The translations under genes and the position numbers were made by a program. The notes beneath the pieces are model-generated. The model was not told where the DNA came from, did not search any database, and saw only the letters and a program-made list of their open reading frames with translations. A stretch of DNA of 63,187 bases, filler included, from Sphacelaria rigidula (Eukaryota): assembly GCA_964200075.2 (NCBI GenBank). It is 8 parts of 8 records of this genome, joined end to end, with 100 filler letters (N's around TTAATTAATTAA, not from the genome) between each part and the next. Parts side by side here need not be neighbours in the genome. Positions count along the whole stretch, not along the records: positions 7,913 to 15,724 come from CAXNAA020013376.1; 7 more parts are not named here. The stretch is one strand, 5' to 3'. Below, piece by piece: positions 1,802 through 57,039 of the stretch (within the stretch, counting starts at the first letter, position 1; each line of letters starts with the position of its first letter).

Positions 1802-2165
1802 CTAACCCACCCAGACGAACCGTTATTACAGCTGCGATAATATATCCTCAAAGGCAGCGAAAACTGAGGTTTTTCTTTTTTCGTGAAGTCATGAGTGGCC
1901 AATACTAGTAAAACACGCCTAAGGAAATACTCCCGACTCACTCCCACACTTCCGAATAAAGAAAGCAGAAACTAAAGTGCTTTAAAACGCGGAAGCACAA
2001 AACTGCTGCCGCGTGCTAGAAACCAACAAAGAAGCACACAATGCTTCGGCGTCCTAGCAAAACGAGGAAAAAATGGGGGGGGGTACAATAGGGAGCAAGC
2101 TGCGCCAGCTTCGACCTGGGGGATTCCAAAGGGACAACAGGGAACAAGCTAGGCCAGCTTCGACC

Positions 2166-3508
2166 AGCTACTCTCACCGTGACTGGGCTCGCGAACAAAA
2201 CGCAGAACCGCTACGACGCGCAGCCGCCCGATACTTAGAGCTCGACTGCCCAGTCCCTCTCTCGCCCGAACGTTTGGCTCCTGTTGGCACACTGCCACCA
2301 CCATATATCTCCGAGGTATATGAACTCGTGCGTAAAGACACGATTTTTACCACGGGCGAAGGTGTGCAACTACTCGTGTGTCGACCCACGCCTTTAGCAG
2401 GCGCAATTACTACCTCCACCACGGGACGCCACGCACGACTACTCGATGACGAACCCACGCGCATATATGTTCCGTTATTAATGCGCCCCTGGGTAATGAA
2501 ATGCTGTCACACAGACTTGTCATGTCATCTTGGCGTCACCCGCACCCTAGCGCTCTTGGAACGCTTTTACTGGTGGGTTGGCATGGAAATTTCTACCCGC
2601 TTTTGGATCCGGCGATGTAAAGCTCGAAAGACTTCACGGCAGACAGTCCGCTGGCCAGTCATCTCTATAGGACTCCCCAACGCGCCCGGGCCACCTTGTG
2701 TCCTTTGACTACTTGGACCCTCTACCGCTCACAGGTCGCGGCAACAGCTACATCTTACTCTTCACTGACCGCTTCAGCCGTCACGCGTCCATGTACGCGG
2801 TAACCGCTGCAGATTTCACTGCCACAGGAACGACCGACATATTGGTCCACGACTACATCAAGCACTACCGTTGCCCGAAACGACTTCTTTCAGACAACGG
2901 TCAACATTTTTGCTCAGATCTTTCTGGGGAGCTTTACAAGCTCCTGGGCATCCGCAAATTTGCCACGAGCGCCTACCACCCTAACGGCAACGGTGGTACC
3001 GAACGAGTTAGTCACACCATAGCCCAAATGCTCTCTGTGGTCGGTAACGACCGCCAAAATGACTGGGACCTACATCTCTCGCACACTATGTTGTCCTACA
3101 ATAACTCGGATAATGCCCCCACAGGACTTTCTCCGAACGAACTCCATCTTGGACGTTACGCCCGGCTACCCATCACCATGTTTAAAAGACACACGTCCGA
3201 TGGCCACCAAGGCTTGGATCAGGATCATATATCCTACCATGAGGTAGCGCATTCACGACAACGAAAAGCGTTTACCCTCGTGCGCGAACAACACGCTATC
3301 AATGCCTCGCGCCTGGAGCGATCTAACACTGCTCTCTTCAACCTAATGCACAAACGCCCCAACTGGAAAGTTGGTGATTGGATTTGGGTCTACAACAGTC
3401 TATCGACCACCCGCCAGGGTACCAGCAAGGCAGCCGACGAAACAATTCTGAAGGCAAAATTGTCCCTCAATTGGACAGGATCTTTCAAGATTCTGACAGT
3501 CGGTCCCA
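2166..3508 (+). pseudogene. Gypsy integrase (HHCC zinc finger, DDE core, GPY/F-like motif), frameshifted near 2700, inverted relative to the element
   Basis: HTDLSCHLGVTRT..RRCKARK, FDYLDPLP, LLSDNG, AYHPNGNGGTER and WTGSFKIL in ORFs 2073-2708 and 2698-3561. Confidence 0.9.
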
Positions 3509-6071
3509 AATCGACAACATCGGAGGTTGTGGGTTTTAACCCCCACAAGACGGCGTGGTAGGGCAGAGGGCGAGGTCCGCCCATGTGCATACCAGTTCCT
3601 GGACATTGAAGGTCAAGGGCGTAGACTGGCGTCGAAAAACGTCTAATTGGGTAAATCCCAGGTTCGTCGGGTTCCGTTAGACGGCAAGCCGGGCTGGAAT
3701 CTGCGGCTGTAGGCGGCAGGGGTAATCGGGAGAGAAGATCAGCGTACCCACTGGTTTGCCTGGGCGAGGCTTAATGGTATACTGGTATGCTGTTAGAAAC
3801 TCCAACCAGCGTTGTGTTCGCCGACCTTGGCGAGTTGCTCGAGTGCCTCATGATCCGTGTAGATTTCAAAGGGCACGTGAAACAGGTATTGTCAAAGGCG
3901 CTTAATGGCCCAGGTGATAAGTCCGCCTTCTAGTTCTAACGGGCTCCAGTTGGCCTCATTGGGCAAGGTGGCGCGACTGCTGTAGAGGAGAGGTCGAACA
4001 GAGCCATCAGCCTGAGGTTGATTCAAAACTCCTCCGAATCCATCTGTGCTAGCGTCGGTGTGGAGTTGAAAAAGGCGAGAGCCGTCTTGTATTGCCTCCC
4101 AATCAGGGAAACAGAGGACCGGTTTTTCGGTAAGGGTTTCCAGCAATTCGCGGGTGATGTTTTCCATCTCGGTGGTGAAAGAAAACACGGCTCCTTTCTT
4201 GAGTAGCTCGGTGAGGGGGCGTATCCGTTTAGATAAATTCGGCAAAAATTGCGGTAGCAAGATAGCCCGTCCAACAATGAGCGAATTTGAGAGATGTTAG
4301 TTGGCATCGGTAAGTCAGTCATAACCCTGACTTTGTTCGTATCCGGATGTAGGCCAGCGGGCGAGATGGAGTGCCCCAAACAATCCAAGTCAGTCGCACC
4401 AAGGCGAGCTTTGGATGGGAGCAGTTTCAAATCGTGAGTTCGTAGTCGAGAGAGAAATTCTCGTAGAGTGCGGACATGTGCAATAGGTGATGCATCAAAA
4501 ACGACAGCGTCATCTAGGCACATGATGATGCGTTCGAGGCCCTCCGTAACGCGTTGCATTAAGCGTTGAAAGCATCCTGGAGCGGTGGCAGCACCTTGTG
4601 GCACTGGAAGCCATTCATGAAGCCCGGACGAGGTACAAAAAGCCGTAAGTGGGACTGTGTTAGGGTGGATAACATTCTGGAAGAACCCAGAAGCGAGGTC
4701 GAAGATGCTGAATATCTTTCCTTCACCTAAGGATTCGAAGACTGCATCAATGCGGGGAATTGGAAGCTTACCAACCACGGTGACGCGGTTCAACCGTTGG
4801 TAATTCACGGTGGTGCGTATGTTTCCATCCTTTTTAGGAACAACCACAAGTGGCGAGGCCCAAAGAGAGGAGGGATGTTGTATTTGTCCTGCTCCCAAAT
4901 ACGCATCCAAGATGACGTCAACCTTTTTGGTAAGGATTGGGTTCGTCCTGTATGGTCGGGAAGAGATCGGCGTGACGCCGGCTTGGAGGGTAACCTCAAA
5001 GGGCAGTGTTTTGCAATCCCCAAGATCCGTTTTGGATCGGGAAAATCGGTCTTGGTACTGTAGCAGGACATCACTGAGTTCTTGGATGACTGCCGGTTCC
5101 CAGCCGGGCCCATGAAGGTCAAAATTGATATCGCGCATGTGTGGCGGCAGTTGGTTCCACATGTGCAAGAAACTATTCCGAGAATCTGACGATAAGCGTT
5201 GAAGCACTTCAGCAGGAGAATCAGAATTTGACTGTGCAGGATCCACGGTGTGGACCTGGGGTGGAGTCGCGGAAGCGAGGTCGAAATAGTGTTCATCGAC
5301 ACAATGGACTGACTCCGCCGGAGATGTGGCGTTTGGCGCGGCAGGCTCTGTGACGCACGTCTCGAGTGGGATGTGCATCAGGGGAGCAGCGGCGATTCCT
5401 AAAACATCGCCGGGTTCCAAGTTAGTATGGCCCGTAAGAGGGAGGAGTTGTTGTCCCGCCGACACAAAATGTTCAGTATCGGCGGGTGCGCCAATACGGG
5501 GTAAAATTTCAGCAAGATAATGGCCCGTAAGTGCTGGCATGCCATTTCGGCGAACTAGTAGTGCAACTTCAAGAAGTTGGGGGTCGTCGGAGAGTGTAAT
5601 ACCCACGCTACCGTTATATCGTAGGTGGTAAGCAGCTCCAGTTGCTTGAAGATTCTTCTGATAAGCCAGGGCGCCGTGGAGAGTATCGAAGTGCTCGAGG
5701 TTGAATTCTCCACGCGGCGTCGAATGTGGCGTTAGTGGTGAAAGCGTGCGGTAGGTTCGTTTATTAAACTGCATATAGCTATCTCTGCCCAATAATATGG
5801 CGTGATGCATTGTGTTGTCGGGGACAACGTATGCCCAGACTGCCAGGCTGGCAGATCGAGTGGTGTTGTGAAATAACTGTACACTGAGACGTACGGATTT
5901 TCGTGTCGTCAGTGGCGCGACAGAATCACCTAAACCGCCCCACACGCGAGGGTTTCGCAAGCTGCAGTAGGAGCGCCAGTCTGTTTCATGTGTTTCCATG
6001 TTGATTCTCGAATAAATGTTTGCGGGCTGCCGCTGTTCAACAAAGATACGCATTTCCGGCATGGATCGCAA
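3509..6071 (-). pseudogene. Gypsy pol: aspartic protease, reverse transcriptase and RNase H (frameshifted)
   Basis: LLNSGSPQTFI (degenerate protease site near 6030, alternative frame), ILLGRD, WASPLVVVPKKDG, FDLASGFFQ, PQGAATAP, CLDD (YxDD site), LHTDASTDGFGGVL, ELEGG, ADLLSRLP. Confidence 0.92.
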
Positions 6072-7049
6072 CGCGAGTAGTGAAAGTGGCCGGATCTACA
6101 GACACTTTGCCGCCGACAAGATCCGGACCGTGTTCCGGCAAGGTAAACTGGTCAGGATCGGCGTGGCTAACAGCAAAAAGAGAAGGCGGTTGATCCGCCG
6201 GTGGGTCAGATTTCTCACCCAAGAAGGGGGTGGACGGTTTATTATTTCCAGGTGTGGCACGGTTAGGGTGACCATAAGCGATTTCATAAATGATCGTCGT
6301 TGGTTGTCAGGGATCCCCGTCTAAGGCAGATCCAGATTATATGTGCCTGGAGTCGTCCATTGAACAAGAAGAGGCGTCAGAAATATCTGATTCCGTTTTT
6401 TCCATGATACTTGATAGGGCTGTCGAGCTCAAAGCCGTCGCATTTTGGAGGGATTGAGGTCGAGGACTTCGGCTCGAAAGAGGTGTACGTAGTAATGCGC
6501 GCGCGTCGTTGGGGGCATGCTTACGGGGCTTTCTCTTTCGCCGTGACAAAGGGCGGGGAATTTCCAAAGCATTTGGGGATAAGACCACAACTACGTCCAG
6601 TCGGGTGGATGGGATCAGCATCGGGGCATGATGGGGCGAAACTTGTGGACTGCTTTCCGTAGGCAAGCTTCGCGGGGGAGACATGGCCGAAGGTAGTCTG
6701 GGGCGGTTGTTATTTAAACCTGCCAAAGGTAGTTTTGCGCGGGTTGAAAATCGCAAGGAAGGAGCTCGATCCAACTGATTGAGGATTACATGGTCCGATG
6801 TGATCAAATTCAAATCAGCAACCCTGGGGTCAGCTGGAAAAAGCTTGTGACTACCTGTTCGTGCGGTCGCTGTGGGAAGCCGTTGCCTCAGAGACTGGCG
6901 GTTGGTCTTCCCACACCTCAGACTTACACTCGGTACTAAAGGACCAAGTTCAGGGCCGGGTGTAGGTGTGAGTCGCGGATTGACACAACTGTTACGCGGT
7001 GTGCGGAGGGGTGAAGACGGGGGTCGAAATGAACGGCCGTCGGTTGCGC

Positions 7050-7812: not shown

Positions 7813-7912
7813 NNNNNNNNNNNNNNNNNNNNNNNNNNNNNNNNNNNNNNNNNNNNTTAATTAATTAANNNNNNNNNNNNNNNNNNNNNNNNNNNNNNNN
7901 NNNNNNNNNNNN
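7813..7912. other. Artificial 100-bp contig spacer (also 15725-15824, 23637-23736, 31548-31647, 39458-39557, 47368-47467, 55278-55377)
   Basis: Identical N-run/TTAATTAATTAA/N-run structure, with stops in all six frames. Confidence 0.98.
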
Positions 7913-9519
7913 CGATTTCACGGAAACACTGTTGGACTTACCGGCAGGATTTTGCACCAATGTGCGAGGTAAGCGTTTTGTCCATTAATGATGCAGAGAC
8001 TCTCCGCCGCTGATAGCCATCCAAAGCTTACTCTCAATCATATCATCTACTCTCAATCTCACGAAAACGAAGATTCGCGCCCGGAGGGCTGATCGCGGGA
8101 ACCGGCTAGTACCTGCGGTCAGGGGCGAGGATGTTAAGTAATCCGTCAAGATACAGAGTACGTAAACATGCCTCTTACATCTGGTTGAATCCGATTTTTT
8201 CTAGGAATCAGTGCAATGCGATGATGCCCTGGTGTTCAGAACTCCTCGAGCAGGCTCTGGTTTCAACACTACCAAGGAACTAAAGGAATCGAATCACCTG
8301 AAGCTGTGAACAAGGATATCCTGACGATCGAAGTGTACTGTACTGCGTTGGACTGTCTCCCCACGTGCTGTGAGCCTACGATTGTTACAAGAATAACGGT
8401 GAGACGGTTTGGAGCTCGAGTACTTTATGAACAGATTTGAAAGGATCGACCTGTAGTAAATGAATATGAACGAACTCATGCACAAATGGATGACAGTCAA
8501 AGAATAAGAAGAATAAAAGATCCCGCCCGAAATAGTGAAATTTCGTACTCGTTGACCGAAGTTTTGTTACTTGCCTAGCTCAGTGATCAACCTGCACTGT
8601 AGAGTTAAGCAAATACTGACAACAACTGGAGACTGCCGTTTGTTTGTATCATGGTGCTTCCAACCGGGACTATTGTGTTCGATCATATCATCTGCGGTGC
8701 TGCTCAAGCCAGGAGAGGCAAAATGTTCAGGAAGATGTTCACTGAGATATTCAATTTTCTTATTAATCAAGATTGCAAAACATGTGCGTTTCACCACCTC
8801 GCCATAAGTTAGTAAGGACCTCACGTGACTAAACAAAGAATCAGCCATCATGATGGGCGCTGGGTGATGCGCGCTGGGAGCGACGCGCTCGTGCTCACGC
8901 TTACGACGACACAAAGGTAATCAAGCAACGGAGACCGCTATAGTGGTTCCCACCGCGTTTGAGGTAAGGTGAAGAAACGCAATCTGTCGAATTATGAAAA
9001 AAATCAGTGTACTCTTGACCATGACAAGTACCCCGCAAAAATAACTGCGAGATACACAGCTGCTCAGGCGGGAGTTTACGTTCGTCGTGCGTACTGCTGT
9101 AATGAGCGGAGATTGTAAATGCGCCGCCAATGACGCGAGTCAGTGGACCCATACCCATATAAATAACAGTATGATCTCGGGATATTGTATGTCGACTGAG
9201 ACTCAACCGAAATATGAATTGATACATGAGCTGAGGCTACGAGATGAACCTCAAGACTAAGGTCCATCCCGGGGTGCTTGCACCGCTTGAAGATGCGTGT
9301 CCACCACGTAAGCGTAGCGATATCGCTCACAGCCTGACTTCGGAGGTGGCTATGCGCTAGTCCTGTGCGCGATGCCATTTGAGTAAAGTAAAATGGCGTG
9401 CCGCCCACGCAGTTCGATTCGAGCTCTTACAGTTCAGAGTCAGAATCTTCAGCTATTCTTGATTGAGCAGGAAGCGCGGAGTCGATGTCGGAAGGCATGA
9501 GTCTCTACACGTTGTATCC

Positions 9520-9972
9520 GTTAAATGCAACAGCTGCACGCACGAGTTTTGACGCGTGATACATGTGGCAGGAGCAATGTAGCGCTGCATGCACCCATTA
9601 CCTTGCACACTGTATTGTTACACATGAACGCCGCCCCGGGTAAATACACTATGCCCCACATAATTACCGTTCGCTAATGCGCGACACTGGCACATTGGGT
9701 CGATGTTACATCGAATGTTGCCAGAGATTGTTGGCACCGCTCGTTGTCTCCTTTAAATGCAACACAGCTGCGCGCACGATTTTTGACGCGTGATACAGCT
9801 GGCAGGAGCAACGTGGCGCTGGCTACACCCATTTGCAAAAATTGTATTGTTGTACGTGAACGCCGCACCGGTTAAATTAACTATGCATCGCCGAATCGCT
9901 GTCCGCTAATGCGCGACACTGGCCCAGCGGGTCGGTGTTACCTCGAACGTCATCAGATTTTAGTGGCAGCGA
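9520..9972. repeat. Diverged tandem duplication, about 232-bp unit, two copies
   Basis: TTAAATGCAACA..GCTGC..GACGCGTGATACA..GGCAGGAGCAA..CGCTAATGCGCGACACTGGC occurs at about 9520 and about 9753. Confidence 0.8.
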
Positions 9973-10806
9973 TGGGGCGAAGAACCGAAACAATCAGGAG
10001 GGTATTCACAACAAACAACTGCTGATGTGAGCTGTTGATTGGGAGTTATGAGCGCCGATGTGTGCGTTACACACCAAGCCGATGCTGCTGTAATACCCTC
10101 CCGTTTGGTTTTAGCGGGAAAACCGAGATGCCGCACCTCGCTTCATGCTTTGAGTGACACGACTGCTACTTCGAGCAAGAGCCGGATCCAGTGGTATGGA
10201 TTGTTTAGACAGGTCCCAAATGAGGATGCTTGGATCTTTATGCCGCTGCACCGGTTGTCCAATTCACCCCCCGCCACAGCTGCGGTGCGCTCGGTGATAG
10301 CTGCGCGATGTAAATTCTAGGAGCAACGTTGTGTTTTCTTTAGCCATCAGGTTACGGTCACGGTGAGATACCTGTAAATCTACGATAGCGCTCGAACGAA
10401 ACAGGGATCACGGGAAACAATAAAACAAAATGAGGGTATCTTCATCAGTACGGTTACATTATTCCGAAATGAGGGGTGGTGATGTCAAATTTATCCTTTC
10501 TGCAGACTGCACTGACTGTCGCAACTACAGTACAGTACAGGTGCCCAACGCACGACACTAGCACGACAGAACGTTGTTTGTCTCACCGAAAACGAAAGAG
10601 TCCACATACCCACGAAGTTTTCAACAAAAGTGCAGACAGCACTGCGTGCGACTAAGGTTGTTTTCGGTAGGGACGAGCACAACAACAGTATTACTGCTCA
10701 TCCAATCCAAAACAGTGTGCGTGATTCGTGAATACTCCGCAGCAGAACGGACAGGAAAAGCTTCGACACCTGAGAGGGCTTGAAGGCTTTTGCTGTGAGA
10801 CAGTAG

Positions 10807-11065
10807 GGAGCAATGCTACGGTAGGGGTGCACTTTTTTCGCGAAATTTTGTCTGGTTCAGGGGCTCCTAAGGATTCGAGACGCACAAGAATACGGGTCAC
10901 GGCATCCCCGTTCGCACATATATTCTGGATATCCCCAGCACATTGGAATAGTAATCCTGGCATACTCTCGCATATTTTTATAAGTCGTGTTTTGGATGAG
11001 ATCAGGGGCCCCTAACAATTCCAATCTCAGAAATTATTTCTGTACCCCTACCGTAGCATCACTCT
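10807..11065. mobile_element. PIF/Harbinger (Tourist-like) MITE, copy 1
   Basis: TIRs GAGCAATGCTACGGTAGGGGTGCA and TGTACCCCTACCGTAGCATCACTC, with TAG flanks. Internal similarity to 39754-40093. Confidence 0.75.
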
Positions 11066-12654
11066 AGGGAAACAAGATGTTCCATGGTTTAGTCCTCCAG
11101 CTGATTGTGGAAGGGTCTTCCAATTGAAGCCAACGCCAAGTGAACACTCCACTATAGCCGCACTTCTTTCCATTCACCTTGGGTTGTTCGGATCGGTTTT
11201 GAGAAGGTTGACGTGAGATGCGAGCTTCACACGCTAATTAATTAAGCAGATTCGGGCCCGGTACATCTTCGGTATGCCGACTTGTGTACACCAAACGGTC
11301 AGACCTCTGTCAATTACCCAACACTTGCATCTGGGCAAACTGATTATGTATACAGGACCATCCCCATGTTATCACATGATAATTGAGTGACTGAGCTGTA
11401 TTGAAATGCACTGAAATTCGGTACCGCTGCTTCTGTATAGCTTTACGACAAATACTGTAGCGCATCCAGGCGGGCAGTCAGGCTGTGGTGACGCTACATC
11501 AGCTATTCACCAACGCCAGCCATGCTTGAAGGGCCGTACTTCAAAACCTGACATGTTGACCGTGATGCGGCTTCACAACGCCGCCGCGTACCGTTACTCG
11601 TCATGTACAGGCAGTTTCACAGTGCTACCGCGTGTCTGGCAAAAATGATGTAAAGAAGGTGGCGGTTAAAACTAACGATGCGCGGAATATCGAAACGTTC
11701 CGTCTATCAAACCCTAAACCTTATCACGACCTACCTTAGCGAGTCTCTATAAAATTATGAATTACGCCTGCCAACAGACTGAGCAGACAATTGTCATGAA
11801 CAGGAAGTTGCGAAGTTTGAATGGACAAAACACAGCACCCCCCGGTCAGGGGGGGCAGGTCATTGATATTCGTGAGGTTTACTATTATGAAAAATGGATG
11901 TAAACCCCTCGCAGTTCTCCCTGCTGGATAGTTCGAGAGCTGGGGGATATCTGCCCCGATACTAAATAAAACCAGACCCAACCGTGTAGTTCAGTTATGT
12001 TCACAACTTTTGAAGAAAACCCAGCAAACAATAATAGTTTATGGTCCGCTATATATATGAGGGTTGAGAGGTGAACGTTTCCGTTCTAAAACGGTCGACA
12101 GTCGAACGTGAAGCTCCTGTCGCGCGACCAGTGGGGAGTGCAACTAGCCCTTGCTGGCGCACATTGTACTAGTGTGTAGCAATTAGGACAGTATCTACTA
12201 GAATGTGCACACCTTTTCGATTACCCGCTCCATATTATCGAAAGGATATATCACGGTGGATCAAGAATGATCCACCATCAGTCATCAATAACTCAAGGAA
12301 TGGGACCATTTACCCATGTTCATCCTGGCTGGGGTGATCAACTCAATACTGTCACGATTGGGCAGCTACGGAGAGTGCTTCGAGACAAGATATCTGCACG
12401 AGGCCACCAGACGGACACTACACCATCTCCCGTTGTCCATCTACTCTGCGCCTATCGACAATCCAATTCCAACGCGGTTTGTCTGTCCGTGCATGCTATG
12501 ACTACCATCAGACAAGGCTGCGTTCGTCTGGGCAGTGCTTCTGGTCTTGAGGGTCTACGGGTTCCACACATTCATTTTGCCGAGATATATCGAGAAGAAA
12601 CCGACCAGGCGGTTTGCTGATACTGAAGAACGAAAGTAATAATTGTGGACATTA

Positions 12655-13212
12655 TGCACTATGCTAGCATGGAAGCCAGACAACGTGTGAATGAATTGAT
12701 GAATGCGCGTGAGTCCGGAGTATGCGTGCGTTATACAGTAGGCTCACCCACAAGCAGGCAGGAAATCACTACATACAGGGAAATGAAGGAAGGCGAAGAC
12801 CCAAGATAACAAGACCGTGCTTAGCCGAACAGGTTTATAGGAGCCATATTTCCCCTCGCGTGCCCTTGCAGGTTGACAAGAGGCCGAAAATTGGAGGAAT
12901 ATCCCCGACTATTCCCCATGAAGGGAAATCTGAGCCGAATGCTCACATGAACCTGTCATGTGATCAAATTTGCTGCCATGTTTTCCTGTTTCCCTGTTCC
13001 ACCCCTGTTCGTCTTCCCTCTTTGATGTCCACGCTCATATCATGAGGAAAGTTGATGCTGTCAGTTTACCCCATCGTGTCTTCTCACCGTTGATGAGTTG
13101 AGAACGTCCCCAACCCCATTTTTCCAGGAACACTTAAGAAGGAGTAAGGTACTGCGTTAATCATATGAAGTACGTTTAACCGGTGTTATTATACCCATGA
13201 CATATACGTGCA
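12655..13212 (+). repeat. Putative 5' LTR upstream of the Gag-like ORF
   Basis: TGCAC...GTGCA inverted ends, followed by GGTTATC (PBS-like) shortly before the ORF. No clear second LTR, so boundaries are tentative. Confidence 0.35.
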
Positions 13213-13250
13213 GGTTATCGTTCCAAGTACCGCATAGCCAACGCGAAATA

Positions 13251-15383
13251 ATGAGTGGAAACCCTCTAAACCCGCAAGCTCAACCGTTCTACCCAGATGG
13301 ATCAGCTCAACAGTCGCAACAGCCTTCAGTGCAAGCCGCACAGCAGCAGCAACCTGTCGTCCCTGTTCAGCAACAACAGGCTGTCGCACCCCCTCAGCAG
13401 CAGGTTGTTGGCCCCGTTCAGCAACAGCAAGCTGTCGCACCTCCGCAGCAACAGTTTGTTGGACCTGTACAGCAACAGCAGGCTGCCGTACCCCCTCAGC
13501 AACAGGTTGTTGGACCTCTTCCGCAGCAACAAGTAGCCGCGCACCCTCATCAACAGATTGCTGCGCCCATCCTGCCACAGCAGGTGGTGGCGCCGCCGCA
13601 GCAGCTAGCTCTACAACAACAACAGCAAGGACACCTTGGCCCGATGCATCCGCATGTCCCGTTGTCCGTTCCTCCGCCTTCTCAGCCGGCAATTCCATTC
13701 CCTGCGCCCCAGTGGGCCCCTCAAGCTCCGGCCGCCGGGAATCTTGCGTATTCCCAGCTTCCACCTCCGCCGCCGTTGCCCCCGCAGCGCCGCTCTAGGT
13801 ATGTGGTTGCACCGGACCCAATCAGTCTATACTGCAACCCGTTCTATGGATCCCTAAATCCTTCGGGTACAACACCAGCCGCCCAGTCAAGATTGGACGG
13901 GCTGACGCCGTATGGAACCACGTACCCCCGTGTTCCCGCACCACCTGCACAGCCATTTAACCGCGACTGGTCAGCAGTACTAAGACACAGGGAAGCGGTA
14001 TCCCGTCAGGCAAACACCTTAGCCAAGAATCTAGGCTCCAAGGACGCTGACGCCGTGGTGTACAAGGGGCAATCGGTAGAACACACTGCAGAGTTGACGT
14101 ATCGCAACTCCGCAGTCTTGTTTCTAAATCATTTCCGTACCACACTAGCGGCGTACGAAGGGGGGGGTTGGAGGGTACCCACTGACGCACATATGACAAG
14201 CAAGCCGTTGAAACCCCAAGCGGACCAATACACGGATAGACGTAGAGACCTATTAATGCGGGTGATGTTGCAAACTTCTGCGACATGCACAGAGATGACC
14301 AGCTGGCGGGAGTCGCAGGTTACGGTACTCGGGGTAACAGGAGATACCATGCGCGTACCATTTGGGGATTTAACCGTCCTAGAGTGGCTCAGGAAACTAG
14401 TTATCGAGGAAGCAAGAATGGGCACACGCCATGCGGCAGCTGCACTGGTAAACGTAAAGCTGATCAAGAACGAGAGTTACGTAGCGGCAGCCCACCGTCT
14501 AGTTTTGTTGACCATGGCGGCCACAGTCTCCCCAGCTTCACCACACCTCGCGGAAGAGGAACATTTTTGGAGGGCGGCTTCGGAAGATCTAGTCTTGCGG
14601 TTGTGTGGGATCTTCCATAAGTTGGTAATCCCCAACACGGCGGCACAGCTAGTATCGCATACTCTGCTACAGATACCCAACAAGGCCTTGGAGGACGAAG
14701 TCCGTTCGACACCATTTAACCACGGAGATCCGTGCAGCCCCGCAATGAAGAGGCGAGGACGCATTACGTATCGCATATATAGTGAGTTCGTATCGGCCAT
14801 CCAACGCCACTGTGAATGTACCCGGACGACAGCGGACATGATAAATAGCGCTACAGCAGCTCTAACCCGCCCGACACACAAACCTACATATGCGGGGTTA
14901 GTGGAGACCAAGAAGCGACTCTTGAGGAAAGCGGAGGGAGAAGCCCTTGAAGAAGACTTCAACTCCATCGCCGCCTTCAGTAACCAGAAGGCGTCAACGC
15001 CACGCGGCGGCACGCCTTTCGGGGCATCCCCGTCGACTCGCGAAGCGCGGAAGCGTCCGCGAGAAGAGTCAGGAAAGCAGAACAAGCGTGTCAGGTTCGA
15101 CACGCGAGGAGATGCACCGGCGACAGGTTTCATTCCCGCCCAAGATGCACCCAAAGGGGAGCGTGACGTCGCCATACGTCTTCTGGGCGTGTGCTTCAAC
15201 CATGCGTATGGGCGGGACTGCAGCAGCAACGACACAGGGAGCTGCAAGTTTTCCCATCACAAAGGCCTCATCCCCTTCGGCTGTTACAAGCAGCCGGGGC
15301 AGTCCCAAGCAAAGCCCAAGGCAAGGAGAGATAAACTGATGAGCCTACAACTGGGGGACTTGTTCGGGCTTATCGACAATTAG
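13251..15383 (+). CDS. Gag-like protein: N-terminal PAM2-like motif, Q/P-rich repeats, C-terminal CCCH-type zinc finger
   Basis: Intronless ORF of about 710 codons. LNPQAQPFYP at 13266-13295, 17-aa Q/P repeats, and C-x8-C-x7-C-x3-H at 15192-15257. An in-frame protease motif lies downstream. Confidence 0.7.
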   Translation: MSGNPLNPQAQPFYPDGSAQQSQQPSVQAAQQQQPVVPVQQQQAVAPPQQQVVGPVQQQQAVAPPQQQFVGPVQQQQAAVPPQQQVVGPLPQQQVAAHPHQQIAAPILPQQVVAPPQQLALQQQQQGHLGPMHPHVPLSVPPPSQPAIPFPAPQWAPQAPAAGNLAYSQLPPPPPLPPQRRSRYVVAPDPISLYCNPFYGSLNPSGTTPAAQSRLDGLTPYGTTYPRVPAPPAQPFNRDWSAVLRHREAVSRQANTLAKNLGSKDADAVVYKGQSVEHTAELTYRNSAVLFLNHFRTTLAAYEGGGWRVPTDAHMTSKPLKPQADQYTDRRRDLLMRVMLQTSATCTEMTSWRESQVTVLGVTGDTMRVPFGDLTVLEWLRKLVIEEARMGTRHAAAALVNVKLIKNESYVAAAHRLVLLTMAATVSPASPHLAEEEHFWRAASEDLVLRLCGIFHKLVIPNTAAQLVSHTLLQIPNKALEDEVRSTPFNHGDPCSPAMKRRGRITYRIYSEFVSAIQRHCECTRTTADMINSATAALTRPTHKPTYAGLVETKKRLLRKAEGEALEEDFNSIAAFSNQKASTPRGGTPFGASPSTREARKRPREESGKQNKRVRFDTRGDAPATGFIPAQDAPKGERDVAIRLLGVCFNHAYGRDCSSNDTGSCKFSHHKGLIPFGCYKQPGQSQAKPKARRDKLMSLQLGDLFGLIDN

Positions 15384-15497
15384 GACGGAGATCGGGGATT
15401 CGACCACACCCTGGACCAACCAGGAAATGACGCGGAAGAGGACGTCGAGACGGTGGATGCGCTGAGCAACCGGTTCGACGCCACAGGCGAGGAATGA

Positions 15498-15662
15498 AGG
15501 TGCGCCCTGGGGCCGCAGTCCCCGGGGGACAGCGTAGAGGCGGATAGATTAGCAGTAGTGAAAAGGGTTGATGCACAGCAATTGTGGGTGCAAGCTAGAG
15601 TTTGGCACCACAGTACAAGTGGCCTCGGTTTACCAGTAACGGTGTTACTGGACACCGGGGGG
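15498..15662 (+). pseudogene. Start of retroviral-type aspartic protease (pol), truncated
   Basis: VTVLLDTGG (D codon at 15651) in the same frame as the Gag-like ORF. Protease-like sequence stops right after the G-run. Confidence 0.65.
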
Positions 15663-15824
15663 GATGTACTCATGATCATGCATGCCATAGTCATAAGACC
15701 ATTGACCTCGCATCCCTACAATGCNNNNNNNNNNNNNNNNNNNNNNNNNNNNNNNNNNNNNNNNNNNNTTAATTAATTAANNNNNNNNNNNNNNNNNNNN
15801 NNNNNNNNNNNNNNNNNNNNNNNN

Positions 15825-15932: not shown

Positions 15933-16193
15933 GTACGAAATTCTTGTTGCATCTCGGTCAACACTACAACCGTAGTGATGCCAAACTTCAACTCGCTCGA
16001 GTACCGATGTCGCGAGGACAAGCGGAAGCTTACATTGGTGGAACTACTGTATCGTTCCACTAGTAGATCTGCTAGGTAGCTGAGATGTGGGGCCACATTC
16101 AGCCCAGAAGTAGCAATTAATGAAAGTACCACAGCGCTCGGTCGCACGAGAACGATTGTCGTTACAGCAAGCTCTTCTCGGTCTGTCTCTCAC

Positions 16194-16934
16194 CATGTCA
16201 TTGACAATGATGGCCACGGATAAGCCTTCCGCCTTTGCCTGCCGCAGCGCATTACGCATTAGGGTAGTCTTCCCTGCCCCAAGAAATCCCGACAGCAGCG
16301 TCACCTTCATCATTTTTTCACCGCCATCACGACCATCTACCGCCGCCGGAACGGCATCTTGCAACAACTCCTCTACTGTGCCAGTTTCACTCACGCCCAT
16401 CGGTCCAGCTGCAGCGTTAGCAACGACGGGAGTAGAAGACGAACCTATCCTACGCGTACTGTAACTGCGACTATTACCAGATGCCACAGCGATAGGGCTT
16501 GCGTTGTAGAACGAGGGCTGACGCGATCTTCGGCCACGGTCGTTGGTTTGTTCGTTCGATGACCAGCGCGGAGCAGGCAACGGGTGTATCCTGTTGGTGT
16601 GACTGCGAGTGCGAGATACGCTCCTGGTGTTCATGTTGCCCCATTTGGATGGTGAAACGGATGTAACATACCCTGTCGTGATCATAGCAGCAGAAGAAGG
16701 AGGGACTGCGGAAAACTTCCACCGGTTACTATAGCTTCTGCCGCTGCCGCCACCACTCATGGCTGGTGGTACTGCTACTTCTCCCACGAGGACGGCAGCA
16801 TGCAGCTGTCGTCGATATCCTGCTGCATGGTCGGCTGACGTAATGGTTGCGAGGAAGACCGGTGGTGGCCTTCGTGTCGTCCCAGCGACCGCGTTAACAA
16901 GAAGGGCACAGCATAGTGATGATCTTGGTGACAT
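16194..16934 (-). CDS. First exon of a CobW/COG0523 (G3E P-loop GTPase, metallochaperone) gene with a long N-terminal extension
   Basis: KVTLLSGFLGAGKTTLM (Walker A) and VAIIVNDM, followed by a GTGAGA splice donor at 16193. Hydrophobic N-terminus. No further exons recognised in this contig. Confidence 0.85.
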
Positions 16935-18667
16935 TCCCCTCCTTCCAGGTAGAGGTTGGAAGGTGGAGATGGACGGTCAGTGCCAGGGAGCTAGACGACG
17001 TGATGGTTTGCGTATATTTGTATATGACCCATGCCTCAGCGTTCAGACCCGAAATCGTTCCGAAACTCACAACCATTGCGTGATCATAGATGTTAAATTA
17101 ATGTCGATAATTGTACCTCATTTGAAAAAGGCCCAGAACAAAGCTTGATAGATACATAGATATCATATAGTACTGATTTCCACTGAAAAAAGAACAACAA
17201 AGTGTCATGATCATAATAGACGTGTGGTCCTACCTCCGACCAACGGGACTGGAAATGCTTTTTTGGCTCGAACCAGCCCAGGCGCGGTATCACGCACCTG
17301 CCGGCCCTACGACATGCGCGTGTCTAGATTGCGGGAGCGACAATAGGTGGGTGGATTCTCGTCTATTCCTTAGTGTTTATTCCTATGTATTTTTTTCGTG
17401 GAGTGAGATGTGAAGTGCTCTGCTGCTGTGCATACGAGTCGTTTCGTTTTCATACAAGAGTAGTACCAAAACACGGGAGCTCTTCAGCATTTTGAAATGA
17501 TCGACTACTGTATTCGTGACGGTGTTTAACACCCTGTATGATGAGTTTTTCGTCGTATATTATCTCGACAAAAGAAAAAGACCCTGAAGTCCCCGGAGAC
17601 CTCGTTTGCCGAATATATCCCGAGTAAATCTTCCCAACAACACGAAATTGGGGGGCATCGCTGTTGCAGATTCTGAGAAAATCGGGCTCGAAAATCTCCT
17701 TCACGTGAGAGTGCAGCACTCTGATCTACCTTCATCTGCTCAAACAGTTGCAGTACATGTAGCCGAACATTTGTGACGCGACGAAGCCGCATTGCAACAC
17801 GGCATGCTTGTGGATGCATCATCGCATCGTCTTGCATCGCTACCACTACCTATGCTCCACCTGTGTATCGCCAGAAGGATGGTAGAGCTGTAGCGCTTGG
17901 CTTTATCTGTAGCACCTGCTGGTGCCGGTGCTGGTGCTGGTGCTGGTGATGCTACTGCGCTACTGCTGCTGCTGCAGCAGCAGCAGCAGTACAGGAGCAA
18001 TTGACAATTGACAGTTGACATAACCCATCTGTTCTTCAACTGGCTTGACCGCTGGGTTTTCTTTTGCATACTATACAGAAAAACCGGCCACAACATGTAA
18101 AATCGCTTTCACGGTGCCGGGATAACAACAAGTGCCCCCTCTGCAACCTCATCGCATGTCATTTTTGCACGCGCGCCCGACGACGGAGGAAAAACGCACG
18201 TGACAGGTGAACGCTCCGCTGTGTCGAATTGTGTGTTCAACTTGACACCCTTCCACGATCAAAATCCATTCTCCGGCGGTCCCCTGTCATCTCTATTTTG
18301 ATCCCTTTGTATTATTTTTTCCCCTAGGAAGATCTTTGGTTGGGATCACATTTCACAGTAATTACTTGGTACAATACTTGAAGTACAACGGAGTGCGGTG
18401 TGTGTTCTGCGATCATTTCACACATCGGACAGATCAGCTTGTGACAGATCCGGGTCAACTCATTTCAGGCATAGATCGTGTTATGTCCGAGGTGTGCTGT
18501 CACCCGTGCACGCTTGTCCGATGGTGCTCTGTAGGACCCGGTTGACCCGTATATGTTTGCCGAGCGACGAGCTGTACTGCCCGCTTCACACACACTTTCG
18601 TGTACAATTGATCTGCAAACCCCTTCAGCCCCACGTCTCCCTGCGACATTTTTCATATTCGAAAGCT

Positions 18668-23636: not shown

Positions 23637-24164
23637 NNNNNNNNNNNNNNNNNNNNNNNNNNNNNNNNNNNNNNNNNNNNTTAATTAATTAANNNNNNNN
23701 NNNNNNNNNNNNNNNNNNNNNNNNNNNNNNNNNNNNCTTTGCGTCACGTCCGAGTTGATAGTCGCAGTCGATCGTGTGGAAACCATCCTTCCGTGTGACG
23801 TTCACACATTATTGATGGTAGATGGCACATACCGCACACAAGGCACACAGATGCACACCCATGTTGGCTGCCACACACCATGCCGTGCGTCCACGGAAGC
23901 GGTACGGCAGCGATTAGACTGCTGTATTCTTGTAGGAAGACACGAAGGACGCGGGCAAGGACCTTGTGGTCGGGCATGGGTTCCCCGGTGCCGTCGTCGG
24001 CGACAAGCGTACGGGTAGCCATGCCAACTTTCAAAACTAGTTGGCACCCGAGGACAAGCGAAACCGCATTCCCTCACTGAACTGTTTCGGGCGAATTGTC
24101 GAAACCCCCCTAATAGGTTCAACCCCATTTTATTGTTGAACCCTAAAAAATAAAATCGGCTGTT

Positions 24165-31320: not shown

Positions 31321-31647
31321 CAGTAGATGCTTTGCACCGCATCATAGCAAGCTTGCGCCTTAGTTGAAATAACAAAGGCGAAACCGACGGCACATTTACC
31401 TCACTTATGCCCCCATCTACTGTCTGTATTTGCAGACACCCACCGGCAGGCCCGGTGGAGATGTGTACACCTGCTCCTCTGTACTGCGTGTGATCATGAT
31501 ATTTTGAGCTCATGTCAACGGTACACTCATGCCGTGCACGCTACTGTNNNNNNNNNNNNNNNNNNNNNNNNNNNNNNNNNNNNNNNNNNNNTTAATTAAT
31601 TAANNNNNNNNNNNNNNNNNNNNNNNNNNNNNNNNNNNNNNNNNNNN

Positions 31648-32539: not shown

Positions 32540-33416
32540 CTGCCGTAAGGTGCGATTGTGGGGAAGAACGGTTGGGTTTCAGTTCTCACAACTCATGTAC
32601 ATACGTTTAGGAGAGGGTGATATGCCACGTTTTTTCGACCTGGCATGACACCCGTTCCAGCGGGAGCCTTTTGAGCGGCATTTGTCGCGTGTGTATGCTT
32701 ACACCGGCTAGCAAACGGTTGTTTTGAATGTAACATCTGTGCGCTTCTCTTTTATCAAGAACTCTCATGCGTAACTGTGAAGTTTCCTCACACGAACAGA
32801 TGATCAGATTGACTCCGTGTAACCAAAATAAACTGTTCTGAATGAAACGCCAAACAAAATGCAGCAAATTTTGTTAATGTCACGGCCACATGTCGGACGA
32901 CGGTAATGAGTCCCTCTTGTCAGACACGCTACAGTAGCCTTTTAACCTCCATGCAGGAAGAAATCACGTGCGACGACATGAAACATGTGCACGGGACTGA
33001 ACAGACGAACGCGGTCTACGTTTGACAGAGCGTCATGCACTATGCCTTTGCACTGGTGTAAACTACAAAGAATATGTAGCTTCGTCATATATTCTACCCT
33101 CCCTCCCTCCCTCCCTCCCTCCCTCCACTTCTGTAGGACTCAACGAAACGAACAATCTCCCCACAGGTACTCGCATGACAATTTCTCACCAAGCATTAGA
33201 TTCGCAATACCGCAGCTAGTCGGGTTTTTCATCGAAACCTCGAAACCTTGTGCTTGCTTACTCACGTCCTCAAACGCTTCCCGACCACGGAATCCAATGA
33301 TACGATCACATCCTGGAATTTGAACCCGCAAAAATCCGCTCAAAGTAGTACGTTGGTGGAGAAGTTCGACTACTGGATCGCGGCGGCTCTCAAGATGCTT
33401 AGATGTATTTGCTCAC

Positions 33417-33712
33417 CTCATCACTCGCCACGCTACTAGCCCCAGCACCTACCCCATTGATCGCGCGCACGAAGAACATGTAACCCGAGGCAGTTGTGAG
33501 ACCGGTTATGTTCACGGAGGTAGGGACCGGGCTTCCTGTCGCGTTCACAGTCCCCGCCGAAACCGCCGCCACCCCTGTACTATTGTACGTCACCTCGTAG
33601 GCGGTGATGGTGGAATTGTTGTCATTAGGTTCAGTCCATGAGAGCCGAACCTGCCCCGTCAATGATGTTTGAACACCATGCAAGTCGGTGGGCGCGCCCG
33701 GGACTGCTGTGT
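33417..33712 (-). CDS. Fibronectin type III domain exon (same gene)
   Basis: PGAPTDL..VRLSWTEP..ITAYEVTY..ITGL..YMFFVRAINGVGAG. CAG acceptor (phase 1) and GTGAGC donor (phase 0). Confidence 0.9.
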
Positions 33713-34232
33713 CTGAAGAGAACGTTGCACATGGGAGTGGGGCCGGAACTCGTTGGTCACTTCCCGCCAAATTAGCATTTTGCATGAGGTAATCAACCCC
33801 TGAGCACGCGGGCCAAACGGCGAACCTCAGGTGCCAAACAATCAGATTGTGGTGGAGAGTTAGCGATGTCCCCTTTACCACTGCGATCCTCCCACACCCG
33901 CTATCCCTATTGCCATCCCATCTCCAGCTCTCCAATCCTTGCCAACAGGTCCTCTGTCTCGTGTCTGTGCATCTTTCGTCTGGTGGCACTACTCGGTGCG
34001 ACCTGCCACTCCCTCATCGGGTGCGTTCAGTCAGTGAGTGCTACACAACGCAGATTGTGTTTAGTGCTGAGATCATTAACGCCGTGATGGATTGCACCGG
34101 ACTCTGTTCTCTGTGACCGAGCAATAACTTGGAGGATCTTCAGAAAAGCGTACATACTTCCACATCTGTGCACAGAACTGGTATTCACGTGCACGTTAGC
34201 GTGAGGTACGGTCGACGGAGGATAGTGTGCAC

Positions 34233-39300: not shown

Positions 39301-39557
39301 TGTCCCGTCGTCTCGGCCGCTCGGATGATCGCGTTTGGGGCAGTTCATACTTCCTCTGTCCCATGATTAAAGTCCGTTATGACAATTTCTACGATAGCTC
39401 CCCAAAAAAACCAGCTCAAAGTGTCACGAAAAAATGGCCATACAGCGCCTGATGTTCNNNNNNNNNNNNNNNNNNNNNNNNNNNNNNNNNNNNNNNNNNN
39501 NTTAATTAATTAANNNNNNNNNNNNNNNNNNNNNNNNNNNNNNNNNNNNNNNNNNNN

Positions 39558-46128: not shown

Positions 46129-47859
46129 GATGTGTTGTAATGGACAGGCCGCGTGTACACGGCACCGCCACAGGTGCCCCAAGAGGATACAGGCTGTGAA
46201 ACGTGGCGAACAGTGACCGGATCTAAATTCGCTTTCAAAATAGGTCATATTTCGTGGGATACGTTTATCGCGGGTCTGCCAAGCGCCTGGCGGGAGAAAA
46301 ATACTTGGAAGAAAACAGGTCGCCGCGAGAGGTACAACTACTGTTGTACCACACCACACCAATGCTCAGGCAGGAGGGCATCGCACGACTGACAGCACCG
46401 TACATTTCTAGATTATTTGACTAGGTGATTCGGCTTGGAAGTTATTCCCCAAAGCTCTGCTGCTCTCTTTGCGGGTCAACGAAGAAGCTGAAGCTGTGCG
46501 TTGAACATCAAAAGAACATTCAGAATCAGAACACAAGAGCCGAGATTGCTCCATCACCAATTGCACCGCAGTCACCACTGAGCGGCTACTTTACGCATAC
46601 CCGCCAACTGTAGCACCCACGTCGCTTGCGATTACGCCACCTCGCCGTTCTGTGGGAAATAATAAACATCCTCGGGGGAGTTATTTGGTAAACGAGACCC
46701 TCGAAGGAGGGTAGTTCATGGTCCTCCTCGTGAAAATATCCCTTTCTAAGCGGTGGGGGGGGGGGTGCTATATCCCGTCATCGCCGGCGTGATCAGGGGA
46801 GCGGTGGCGCTCAGTGTGTAGCGGCCGGGAGCAGCAACCATGTATAAGCGGACAGTTCCTGGCAAAGGGAAATCTTCTGTATACGGAAGGAGCGATGGAT
46901 CTGGAGACTCACTGCAACGCCTCAAGCGTCTGGATATTTACGCCAGGTACTCATCTCTACATGAACAGTACAGTACAGTACAGTACAGTACAGGTAGAGC
47001 AGAAGAGTGCGGTGCCCAGTTGCTACAGACAGTAGGTAATCTACTGTATGCTGTCTATTCGCAAGTGTCCATCCAGGTGACGAAGTACTCTACATATCTC
47101 AGTAACAGTAAGACCACTTATCATATTCTGAAAACGGACTCTTTGAGAACTTCTGTTCTTGAGCCTTTCATCACGGAGTTTTCGCGGAATACGGGCCTTT
47201 GCGGATTGGGCCTCCTCGGAAAGATTTGCTCGTGTTTTTCACGAGGGTTCTAGCGATTTTGACCTTTTCCCGACAGCTGGACGATTTTGGGGGCGACTGA
47301 GAATATCCAGACCCGACCAAAAGTAAAACTGGGAACCCGGCCAAAAGTAAGACTGGGCGTACGAAAGNNNNNNNNNNNNNNNNNNNNNNNNNNNNNNNNN
47401 NNNNNNNNNNNTTAATTAATTAANNNNNNNNNNNNNNNNNNNNNNNNNNNNNNNNNNNNNNNNNNNNCCTTGCTCTGCCTATATTGTTCCGCTGTAAACT
47501 TCCCAAACACTTATGGTTTACTCCGTGAGCTTCGGCGGTGGTCTGCGTACAGACCCCCCCCCCCCCCGACCACTGGAAACCCCTGGATGCCTCGGGACTA
47601 TCCGCTTGTACAACTGTTCCGAGGCGACGCTCGTCGTCTAAGGGTTAAGTAGTGTTTTAACGAAACAAGGAAAATGAGAGTCATTTCGTGATAGTGATAC
47701 GAAGTGAAGTGACGGTTCACAGCTTAATTATCACGAGAAATCACACACCGTTTTTGTCGAGTATGGTAAGGTGGGGAACAAGTTATACGGAACCGGTGAA
47801 ACAGCACGCGAACAGACCAGCGACTTCAAGGAGGGCGACAATCATGCGCAAGGGGGTAT

Positions 47860-55277: not shown

Positions 55278-57039
55278 NNNNNNNNNNNNNNNNNNNNNNN
55301 NNNNNNNNNNNNNNNNNNNNNTTAATTAATTAANNNNNNNNNNNNNNNNNNNNNNNNNNNNNNNNNNNNNNNNNNNNTGCACTGGAGCACGTGGTTTTCG
55401 TGAACGTCCCTTAGAGGGAAATGTGAACGGCAGAGGGAAATATGATTATCGTTCCTCTGGCGGAGGGACCGTCTATGGCCTCAAAGGCATTTGTTGCGTC
55501 TCCGGAAGACATTTAGCCGTGCAGTATCCTCCAGCGTGTACATCAGCATTTATGTACTTGTGTCGTATAACTGCTTCCAGGGGAACTTTGGGACCATCAC
55601 GCCATGAAAAATATATGTATCACCCGCCGTTCACAGATTGAATTGCAAACCCGACAACACTTATCCCAAGCTATAATACCACCACGATAACCCTGCAGCA
55701 AAGAGCACGAGTTGGCCACAGGGATATAGATACACACTGCAGTAGTTGAGCATGATGTATGTCTTGTTGATGGAAGTTTGAACTTGAGCAGCGGGGTATG
55801 GTGCGAGCAACAACCGGCGGTTCACTGCACACACACCCATGAACAGTGCAGGCAGAAAAAGCTGCGCACACTGTTCAAGTCCTTTTCACGTTGCACTGTG
55901 AGCAGAAGACATACATATGGTCCTGCGCTGTCTGTACTGTACTTTGTGCCCTTCCCTTTCACGTCCTACGGACTGCAGCGGTGAGCACGCTGCAAGAACG
56001 GGCATCGTGTATACTCAGTGGATCACGGTATATAACACCCCCATGTACCCAAAGTCACAGGCATCCACTTTGTTTAACCACACGTGGCGCATATGCCGCG
56101 CTAAGTCTGCAGTATATTGTACAGCACGTATATAAGCACGATATGGTACTGTCCTACACGGTATTGTACTGTCCAGTACCGCATCAAACCATGGTTATTG
56201 TTGTGATGATCCTATATATCACCATCAACGTACAGGATAAACCGCGATCATAATTTTTCGCGTGTTCACTCGAAAAAGTGCTTCACTTTGGTGCTCGAAT
56301 GGTGAACACCGGACCACGGGGTTTTCAAGCTTGTATGTTTAGATGAATGAGGTTCATACAGGATATCCATCATAACCACAAGCTAAAGCTACTTAGCATG
56401 GCTGCGTATACATAAATTCGCAATCGGTGTATGGGATTTGAAACCAGTGGAAGCTGTTAAAGAGTTCGATCCGCTTGCCCAAGATATGAAATGGGGGGCA
56501 AGAGGATGAGTACTTAACGACTTGTGCTGTCTCTCGACTCTCATCCACCGATACCGTGTCGTATGTGGGACTTGAACAGCAAAAGCTGCTCGCAAAAAAG
56601 AGTCTGTTCTTGTCCAATTCAAGGTATTGGTGGGCAAAATGAGGATTCTTTTCGAACAGTTTCTGGTGTACAAATTCCATTTGCGAGTGTATATGGGATT
56701 TGCACGACCTCTGCTGTTCGAAATAAATCCTTTGCGCCTGATTCTAATAATTTGGAATCAGGACTTATTCCGAACAGCTGTGAAAATTCCAGATTTCCAT
56801 AGCACGTGTGCCTCCAAAAACAAATCAGGGAATTTTAATATTGACACAGACCTTCAAGGGCCCCAACATTGAAAATTCTCTAGAGGATTACGAATACCCA
56901 AGATCCTCTAGGGGGGATTTTTAACAGACGGAACCGAGGATGACGTTTGAAAATTCCTCTACGAGGTAGCCGAATGGTCGCGTGTGAAGGGAATGCATAG
57001 CATGATGGCTTTTGCGGTATAAGTGGATCTAAGAAAACG

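Follow-up and report, generated by a model that had tools for sequence, protein, structure and literature searches.

A probable Ty3/gypsy-type Gag from Sphacelaria rigidula with a CCCH module, a Q/P-rich N-terminus and a PAM2-like peptide

Ty3/gypsy retrotransposons (Metaviridae) and gammaretroviruses share a gene order in which capsid (CA) and nucleocapsid (NC) are encoded upstream of protease, reverse transcriptase, RNase H and integrase (PR-RT-RH-IN). How long terminal repeat (LTR) retrotransposons outside yeast and plants bring their capsid protein to their own polyadenylated RNA and into foci is, to our knowledge, largely unknown. Here we describe an open reading frame (ORF) in a 63,187-nt stretch of DNA from Sphacelaria rigidula (assembly GCA_964200075.2; hereafter the window) whose product, P0001, is very probably the Gag of a gypsy-type LTR element and carries a PAM2-like peptide close to its N-terminus. 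To the explanation as a whole, namely a Ty3/gypsy-type Gag of the architecture described below that works through a set of proposed steps including docking on host poly(A)-binding protein (PABP), we assign a probability of roughly 45%.

Both prion-like Gag domains and CCCH-type Gag proteins already have precedents. A prion-like low-complexity region tied to cytoplasmic assembly foci is described for the Gag of Ty1 (Beckwith et al. 2023, 10.1101/2023.02.27.530227) and, as granules, for the GAG of Arabidopsis EVD (PMC12252137); both are copia-type elements, the available text of these reports mentions a PAM2 motif for neither, and P0001 differs from them in a Q/P-rich N-terminus with 17-residue tandem units and in the unrelated low-complexity modules found across its family. 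Among gypsy-type elements, the Gag of Saci-2 from Schistosoma mansoni is described as CCCH and that of CsRn1 as CHCC in the part of PMC2582038 available to us, so that both depart from CCHC; their hosts are flatworms, and the likeness to P0001 is one of description. Direct engagement of cytoplasmic poly(A)-binding protein by a retroelement protein, which for P0001 is a proposal, has been described for the 'PABPC interacting and essential' element of LINE-1 (PMC7617806), with a predicted contact to PABPC1 RRM1 (10.1101/2025.10.09.680815). Unlike P0001, LINE-1 is a non-LTR element, and in the accessible portions of these two sources the predicted contact is with RRM1 rather than MLLE, no PAM2 is given and the carrier is not described as a capsid.

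The window is made of eight joined pieces of about 7.8 kb each and does not represent one locus; features are not traceable across the joins, which are occupied by linkers.

Positions 7813-7912, 15725-15824, 23637-23736, 31548-31647, 39458-39557, 47368-47467 and 55278-55377: piece linkers of the form N44-TTAATTAATTAA-N44.
Positions 13251..15383 (+ strand): gag ORF encoding P0001, 710 codons plus a TAG stop, with no internal stop.

The ORF lies in piece 2 (7913-15724, CAXNAA020013376.1), which overall is a mosaic of repeats and whose end at 15724 limits the view of pol. The labels of the sequencing runs in which it occurs include 'algae metagenome'. The first residues of P0001 are MSGNPLNPQAQPFYP (the start was also read as MSGNPLNPQAQPFYPDG). 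A second in-frame ATG is present upstream, at 13197; because insertions of 6 and 11 nt lie between 13197 and 13251 in a variant contig of high depth, the conserved start was set at 13251, and the PAM2-like motif accordingly falls at residues 6-15.

Relatives of P0001 were collected by exhaustive HMMER searching with residues 230-710 as query at a threshold of E<=1e-3, giving 101 matches (43 of them at E<=1e-10), one of which, P0102, was set aside by eye as a C2H2 zinc-finger protein. A second search, with the relative P0005 as query, added P0103, P0104 and P0105. None of the 100 remaining family members matched a Pfam Gag model at E<=0.1, no PDB chain was found by sequence with either the A3 family profile or the N-terminal peptide, and word-indexed protein searches with P0001 returned no relative in the 390-1243 residue range. 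Searches for the DNA context of relatives, based on alignment A2, gave 165 pattern matches in metagenome contigs and 40 in viral contigs, of which none was confirmed. AlphaFold2 prediction of residues 230-710 with the family alignment reached a mean predicted local distance difference test score (pLDDT) of 81.4, with most core blocks above 90, and yielded a helical core, a disordered linker (pLDDT <50) and a confident small C-terminal module. The initial annotation had called the ORF product Gag-like and had suggested looking for a capsid fold in its central region with AlphaFold, and both suggestions hold: the predicted core is helical and two-lobed, and retroelement capsids or Gag-derived proteins occupy 14 of the 50 rows listed by VIA-align, ranks 1-4 included, among them Copia, murine leukaemia virus (MLV), Ty1-derived Drt2, PNMA2, MOAP1, PEG10, Arc, prototype foamy virus (PFV) and Rous sarcoma virus (RSV).

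Positions 13962..14876 (+ strand): predicted capsid-like helical core, residues ~238-542, with a lobe resembling a capsid C-terminal domain (CTD) at ~392-529.
VIA-align, Copia capsid (8vvw_A): Z 7.1, root-mean-square deviation (rmsd) 3.1, 92 aligned.
VIA-align, MLV CA (6hwx_A), over model 9-313: Z 6.9, rmsd 5.8, 203 aligned.
VIA-align, Ty1-derived Drt2 CA-CTD (9rxy_A): Z 6.9, rmsd 4.1, 85 aligned.
VIA-align, PNMA2 (8rb3_A): Z 6.7, rmsd 6.4, 140 aligned.

The case for this predicted capsid fold rests on the enrichment of capsids and on context, not on any single score. P0001 thus resembles Ty3/gypsy and gammaretroviral Gag in a two-lobed helical core (Z 6.7-7.1 to Copia, MLV, Drt2 and PNMA2), in a zinc module C-terminal to that core, in a protease-like start further downstream and in having a relative fused to reverse transcriptase and RNase H; it differs from them in that its family carries CCCH in place of CCHC and matches no Pfam Gag model and no PDB chain by sequence, in a low-complexity N-terminus of about 235 residues, and in a gag and protease that share one frame with stops between them.

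Downstream of the ORF the same frame continues with the TAG (15381), 37 open codons, a TGA (15495) and 53 open codons ending …GLGLPVTVLLDT, and the following features can be placed.

Positions 15384..15497 (+ strand): in-frame spacer after the TAG, ended by the TGA (15495-15497).
Positions 15498..15656 (+ strand): retropepsin-like protease start, cut off, 53 codons ending …PVTVLLDT.
Positions 15657..15724 (unstranded): very high-copy repeat starting with poly-G, outside the element, which truncates the protease.

The nearest ESM Atlas clusters of these 53 residues carry RVP, RVP_2 or Asp_protease, with lead-grade scores of 0.76-0.87, and the fragment may represent the start of a retropepsin; Pfam returned nothing for it at E<=1. 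The repeat begins with GGGGGGG at 15657-15663. In run X2 the summed word depth was 858,664 in bin 15482-15724 versus 178-272 in the gag bins, loose ends at 15657 numbered 321 in X2 and 798 in X3, and hundreds of contigs whose preceding sequence is unrelated and ends in poly-G start fitting at 15657; this repeat recurs in piece 8 at 61536-61600 (- strand), again behind a poly-G run. Since a high-copy repeat starts at the poly-G, only 'LLDT' belongs to the element and the 'GG' comes from the repeat. Of the LDTGG protease motif that had been reported after the ORF ('VTVLLDTGGDVLMIM', which lies in the gag frame only beyond the TAG and the TGA), what stands is a protease-like start in frame, not the motif itself. 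In the close relatives P0004 and P0025, which are fragments, similarity continues in frame through the position of this TAG (…DRGFD…), so gag and pol share a frame in this lineage; the TAG of the present copy may be either a leaky stop or a private mutation. With two in-frame stops before the protease and the repeat cutting in after 'LLDT', this copy is dead as an autonomous element.

An intact 710-codon ORF beside a pol that two stops and an inserted repeat disrupt is also what might be seen if the protein were a domesticated, Gag-derived host RNA-granule or RNA-binding protein in the manner of Arc, PNMA or PEG10, and PNMA2, MOAP1, PEG10 and Arc do appear among the fold matches. We nevertheless regard domestication as highly improbable. 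The relative P0073 has the core fused to RVT_1 (E 3.6e-14) and RT_RNaseH_2 (E 5.9e-9), the protease-like start lies in frame, the surroundings in piece 2 are a repeat mosaic, and P0004, P0025 and P0051, all close relatives, are fragments with a lost zinc ligand, as is found in decaying copies. Diverged gag versions also occur in the same runs: X2 and X3 contigs are 85-100% like the ORF with 0-39 differences per contig, and those listed for X2 over 13317-14174 differ at 0 to 32 positions. Because several diverged versions coexist in this way, the ORF is not a single-copy host gene, and the possibility raised at the outset, that of such a gene unlinked to pol, is contradicted by these copies together with the P0073 fusion.

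C-terminal to the core, two further conserved elements were recognised.

Positions 14970..15020 (+ strand): conserved linear motif AAFSNQKASTPRGGTPF, residues 574-590, in the low-confidence linker.
Positions 15192..15257 (+ strand): single CCCH motif CFNHAYGRDCSSNDTGSCKFSH, residues 648-669, C-x8-C-x7-C-x3-H.

Outside the core and the CCCH module, no sequence is better conserved than the linker motif, AAF.N...S.PG..GTPF, though the linker is predicted to be disordered; A574, A575, N578, S582, P584, G587, T588 and P589 are invariant in alignment A2, and the motif might be cut by the protease or act as a second peptide for docking. The CCCH module is modelled at pLDDT 91-97, and its family signature reads CF.HA.G..C…C.[FY].H and continues with …P.G.Y. 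Of 35 aligned C-termini, 31 retain the complete set of four ligands and one of the other four is cut off, and a CCHC knuckle (C-x2-C-x3-4-H-x4-C) was present in none of 105 proteins, P0001 included, so that the CCCH finger without CCHC proposed for this one ORF extends family-wide. Its spacing was also given correctly; it does not end the ORF, as had been thought, and instead lies 41 residues before the stop. Zf-CCCH_12 matched marginally in 2 of 100 members (best E 0.0014), the 91-residue CCCH model had no VIA-align match to solved structures, and in the ESM Atlas the clusters nearest to the module have zf-CCCH in 13-44% of their members at scores of 0.85-0.88, which is lead grade. This pattern of residues is naturally read as pointing to a zinc-binding, nucleocapsid-like role, while membership of the classical CCCH family is unproven.

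The N-terminal part of P0001 is of low complexity over about residues 1-235 and contains a tandem array.

Positions 13353..13607 (+ strand): five 17-residue Q/P units, residues 35-119.

In register, the five units read PVVPVQQQQAVAPPQQQ / VVGPVQQQQAVAPPQQQ / FVGPVQQQQAAVPPQQQ / VVGPLPQQQVAAHPHQQ / IAAPILPQQVVAPPQQL, and Tandem Repeats Finder reports 13362-13560 with a period of 51 nt, 3.9 copies and 80% matches. Residues 1-135 consist of 34% Q, 18% P, 13% V and 12% A, the Pro-rich stretch of residues 136-260 contains 22% P, and residues 1-200 hold just 3 K+R and 2 D+E. Translation, composition and repeat finding thus bear out the roughly 17-residue units and Pro-rich tract that had been read from the sequence, and the region is Q-rich and charge-poor in the manner of a prion-like or low-complexity domain, as judged on composition. 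One contig each in runs X2 and X3 skips 48 nt (13396 to 13445), and hence the number of Q/P units varies between copies. In the family, N-termini were surveyed in 26 relatives whose core is preceded by 40 or more residues and in the three from the P0005 search (29 in total). Many are of low complexity but unrelated in kind, being Q-rich, P/Q-rich, built of G/Q/P repeats or APAP-x-Y repeats, or Arg/Ser-rich. A disordered N-terminal module is a general and interchangeable trait of the family, and it appears to have been swapped between lineages. In P0049, P0053, P0074 and P0082, Arg/Ser- or Arg/Asp-rich N-termini resembling splicing SR proteins replace the Q/P-rich kind.

The PAM2 consensus is LNxxAxEFxP, in which Phe at position 10 is a main binding determinant and Asn stabilises a turn, and a Trp variant is tolerated in LARP4/4B, according to the available text of PMC7356810. 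The corresponding peptide of P0001 is the following.

Positions 13266..13295 (+ strand): PAM2-like motif LNPQAQPFYP, residues 6-15; Pfam PF07145.

Five of the six fixed consensus positions (L, N, A, F, P) are matched, E being replaced by P. P0001 thereby shares L, N, A, F and P at consensus spacing with the host motifs and, like LARP4B, has its motif near the N-terminus in a disordered-type composition (PMC7356810, in the part available). It differs from host PAM2 motifs that bind the PABPC1 MLLE domain in having P rather than E at position 9 and in that its carrier is a mobile-element capsid protein, the likeness being one of sequence only. The PAM2 of eRF3 also has P at position 9. The motif is carried by five of the 29 relatives that have 40 or more N-terminal residues, P0103 has a degenerate form, and none was found in P0104.

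P0005: LSPFAPPYVP
P0007: LSPSAIPYVP
P0011: LSPYAAPYVP
P0024: LRPFAPPFPP
P0105: LSPHAMPFVP

These motif-bearing relatives are 24-31% identical to P0001 overall, and their low-complexity flanks cannot be aligned. In a quick tree of 51 cores they form one clade, with support of 99 (81 with P0024) in the Shimodaira-Hasegawa-like approximate likelihood ratio test (SH-aLRT). A late domain (PPxY, YPxL) and an NPF ligand of EH domains were considered as other readings and rejected by eye, as the spacing neither fits nor is conserved.

Several results weigh against the explanation that we favour. As to the fold, all capsid Z values are below 8, which is middling for helical models, and Foldseek found no PDB match at E<=0.001 for either the model of residues 230-710 or the CCCH model. 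The usual second spacer of CCCH fingers is 4-5 residues, and the spacer of 7 in P0001 is longer; no Pfam CCCH model matched P0001 at E<=1, and the third Cys is lost in three close relatives. The protease-like start is a lead only, coming from a 53-residue fragment with a lead-grade Atlas match alone. The greater part of the counter-evidence concerns the PAM2-like peptide, which may not be a PABP ligand at all: the same Gag could carry a chance look-alike, or a peptide for SH3/WW/GYF/EVH1-type or late-domain-like docking, in which case the N-terminal region would be a generic low-complexity assembly module only. In favour of this alternative, PAM2 is the sole Pfam match of whole P0001 at 15.4 bits (E 0.015), under the cut-off of 20, and the isolated 30-residue peptide that reaches 20.4 bits (E 3.9e-4) against the same cut-off was picked after the motif had already been seen. 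Pfam found no PAM2 in the P0007, P0011, P0024 and P0103 peptides, so that it was missed in three of the initial five motif peptides and in four of seven in all. The relatives have S in place of Asn and mostly Y in place of Phe, a main binding determinant in the accessible part of PMC7356810. The motif is missing in 23 of the 29 relatives and degenerate in one more, and most clades have other N-terminal modules instead (RS-rich, G/Q/P, APAP-Y repeats). In the P0005 clade it adjoins a second conserved block, PYVPSIQGPY[DE]NP, which is not PAM2-like. Among the closest relatives (>45% identity) none was found with an N-terminus, and in the tree P0001 and the fragment P0002 stand on a long branch apart from the motif-bearing clade. 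Forcing both into one clade was not rejected by the approximately unbiased test (p-AU 0.175), so the motif is either old and often lost, or was gained twice.

Other observations speak against a peptide unrelated to PABP. The spacing of L, A, the aromatic residue and P is retained while the low-complexity surroundings are unalignable, and P0105 keeps the Phe. PAM2 is the sole Pfam match of the P0105 peptide (16.1 bits, E 0.0093) and of the P0005 peptide (14.1 bits, E 0.039), as it is of P0001, whereas it matched none of nine control peptides (60 residues each, from low-complexity regions of motif-less relatives). Of 27 N-terminal regions, five contain the pattern L.P.A..[FY].P, and none of 2000 composition-preserving shuffles yielded as many (shuffle mean 0.04). 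The shuffles ignore shared ancestry, and the counts in relatives are not independent. As PAM2 is the sole Pfam match and no shuffle reaches the count, we take the motif to be more than chance. We put the alternative of a peptide that does not bind PABP a little short of an even chance; a real interaction of the P0001 peptide with a PABP MLLE domain is predicted only tentatively from its residues, at somewhat less than even odds. The PAM2-like motif of the initial annotation is accordingly upheld in part: L, A, the aromatic residue and P recur in relatives and Pfam recognises PAM2 in three peptides, but most clades are without it. The related expectation, that PAM2 and CCCH positions would be conserved while the Q/P tract varies, is borne out for the CCCH ligands and the variable Q/P tract; the PAM2-like positions recur in the same five relatives, which cluster in one clade.

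That the 2.1-kb frame is open merely by luck, in a decaying and non-functional copy whose motif and repeats are slippage products without selected function, has to be considered as well, given that the element is truncated, that stops interrupt the pol frame and that the Q/P tract consists of 51-nt tandem units varying in number. A stop-free frame of this length that retains every family-invariant residue and all four zinc ligands would be unlikely in an old dead copy, however, and the motif recurs in distant relatives; we consider such decay very unlikely as an explanation of the ORF.

Returning to a Ty3/gypsy-type Gag that docks on PABP, the order of its parts would be a Q/P-rich disordered N-terminus, a two-lobed capsid-like core, a disordered linker, the CCCH module with basic flanks, and a short tail. 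While the sequence features, predicted folds and conservation are results, we infer each functional step. The capsid-like core, whose fold is predicted, would assemble particles. The CCCH module with its basic flanks, for which conservation of the ligands is observed, would probably bind RNA in place of a CCHC knuckle. By analogy with the prion-like domain of Ty1 Gag, the Q/P region might self-associate multivalently into retrosome-like foci, a step to which we give even odds. LNPQAQPFYP could dock on the MLLE domain of host PABP, a tentative step that we place somewhat below an even chance; docking would tether Gag to polyadenylated RNA, its own transcript included, and possibly compete with or displace deadenylation adaptors that bear PAM2. 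Assembly might in this way be coupled to polyadenylated RNA, with a constant chassis of capsid and CCCH module to which swappable adaptors (PAM2 plus Q/P, RS-rich, or G/Q/P repeats) are joined, each addressing another host RNA-granule system; this wider design we regard as unlikely, if worth stating.

If the proposal is true, a Gag with a host-type PAM2 would be a case of short-motif mimicry connecting a mobile element with poly(A)-binding protein, a hub through which translation and deadenylation are controlled as well. A literature search on PAM2 or MLLE together with retrotransposon or Gag, covering mostly titles and abstract openings and few subscription journals, found no description of PAM2 in a Gag. 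Independently of the outcome for PABP, a Gag family emerges that counts at least 100 members, has no Pfam Gag match and combines CCCH with swappable low-complexity N-termini; its definition is useful for annotating repeats in the genomes of algae and other protists. We regard this definition as solid and the idea of PABP docking as tentative.

Upstream of the ORF, one region can be tentatively assigned to the element.

Positions 11828..13250 (+ strand): upstream region, possibly 5' LTR and leader.

In run X2 the summed depth was 1452-2399 in bins 11828-13393 versus 178-272 inside gag. Piece 2 contains no second LTR that would confirm an LTR pair, and inspection of 12900-13250 by eye revealed neither a primer-binding site nor an LTR end. 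An Rfam scan of piece 2 gave nothing at the gathering score. A nested insertion read from the joints among 8068, 10808, 11064 and 15657 was not accepted, the joint sides being shorter than 30 letters, and low-depth X6/X7 contigs over parts of the same stretch were not used as evidence of transcription, the RNA nature of the runs being only guessed. Further upstream in piece 2, a 257-bp element resembling a miniature inverted-repeat transposable element (10808-11064) has 24-nt terminal inverted repeats that are 88% complementary and is very abundant (summed depth 537,014 in its bin in X2, where loose ends coincide with both of its borders), and two adjoining 230-bp direct copies at 9510-9739 and 9742-9971 are 78% identical.

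The other pieces hold features of several kinds. Gypsy-type parts occur in piece 1 on both strands, namely RVT_1 (4026-6095) and RT_RNaseH_2 (3895-4296) on the minus strand and Integrase_H2C2 (2058-2705) and rve (2671-3558) on the plus strand; the P0001 Gag family had no match in piece 1 at 2058-6095. Piece 8 contains an RVT_1 fragment (57156-57839, + strand; E 2.8e-16) among broken frames, of non-LTR look by eye. An open frame in piece 3 (16047-16976, - strand) has a CobW/HypB/UreG nucleotide-binding domain (E 7.4e-10) and probably represents a host GTPase exon, and piece 5 has an open frame (33402-34013, - strand) with a fibronectin type III domain (E 1.3e-14).

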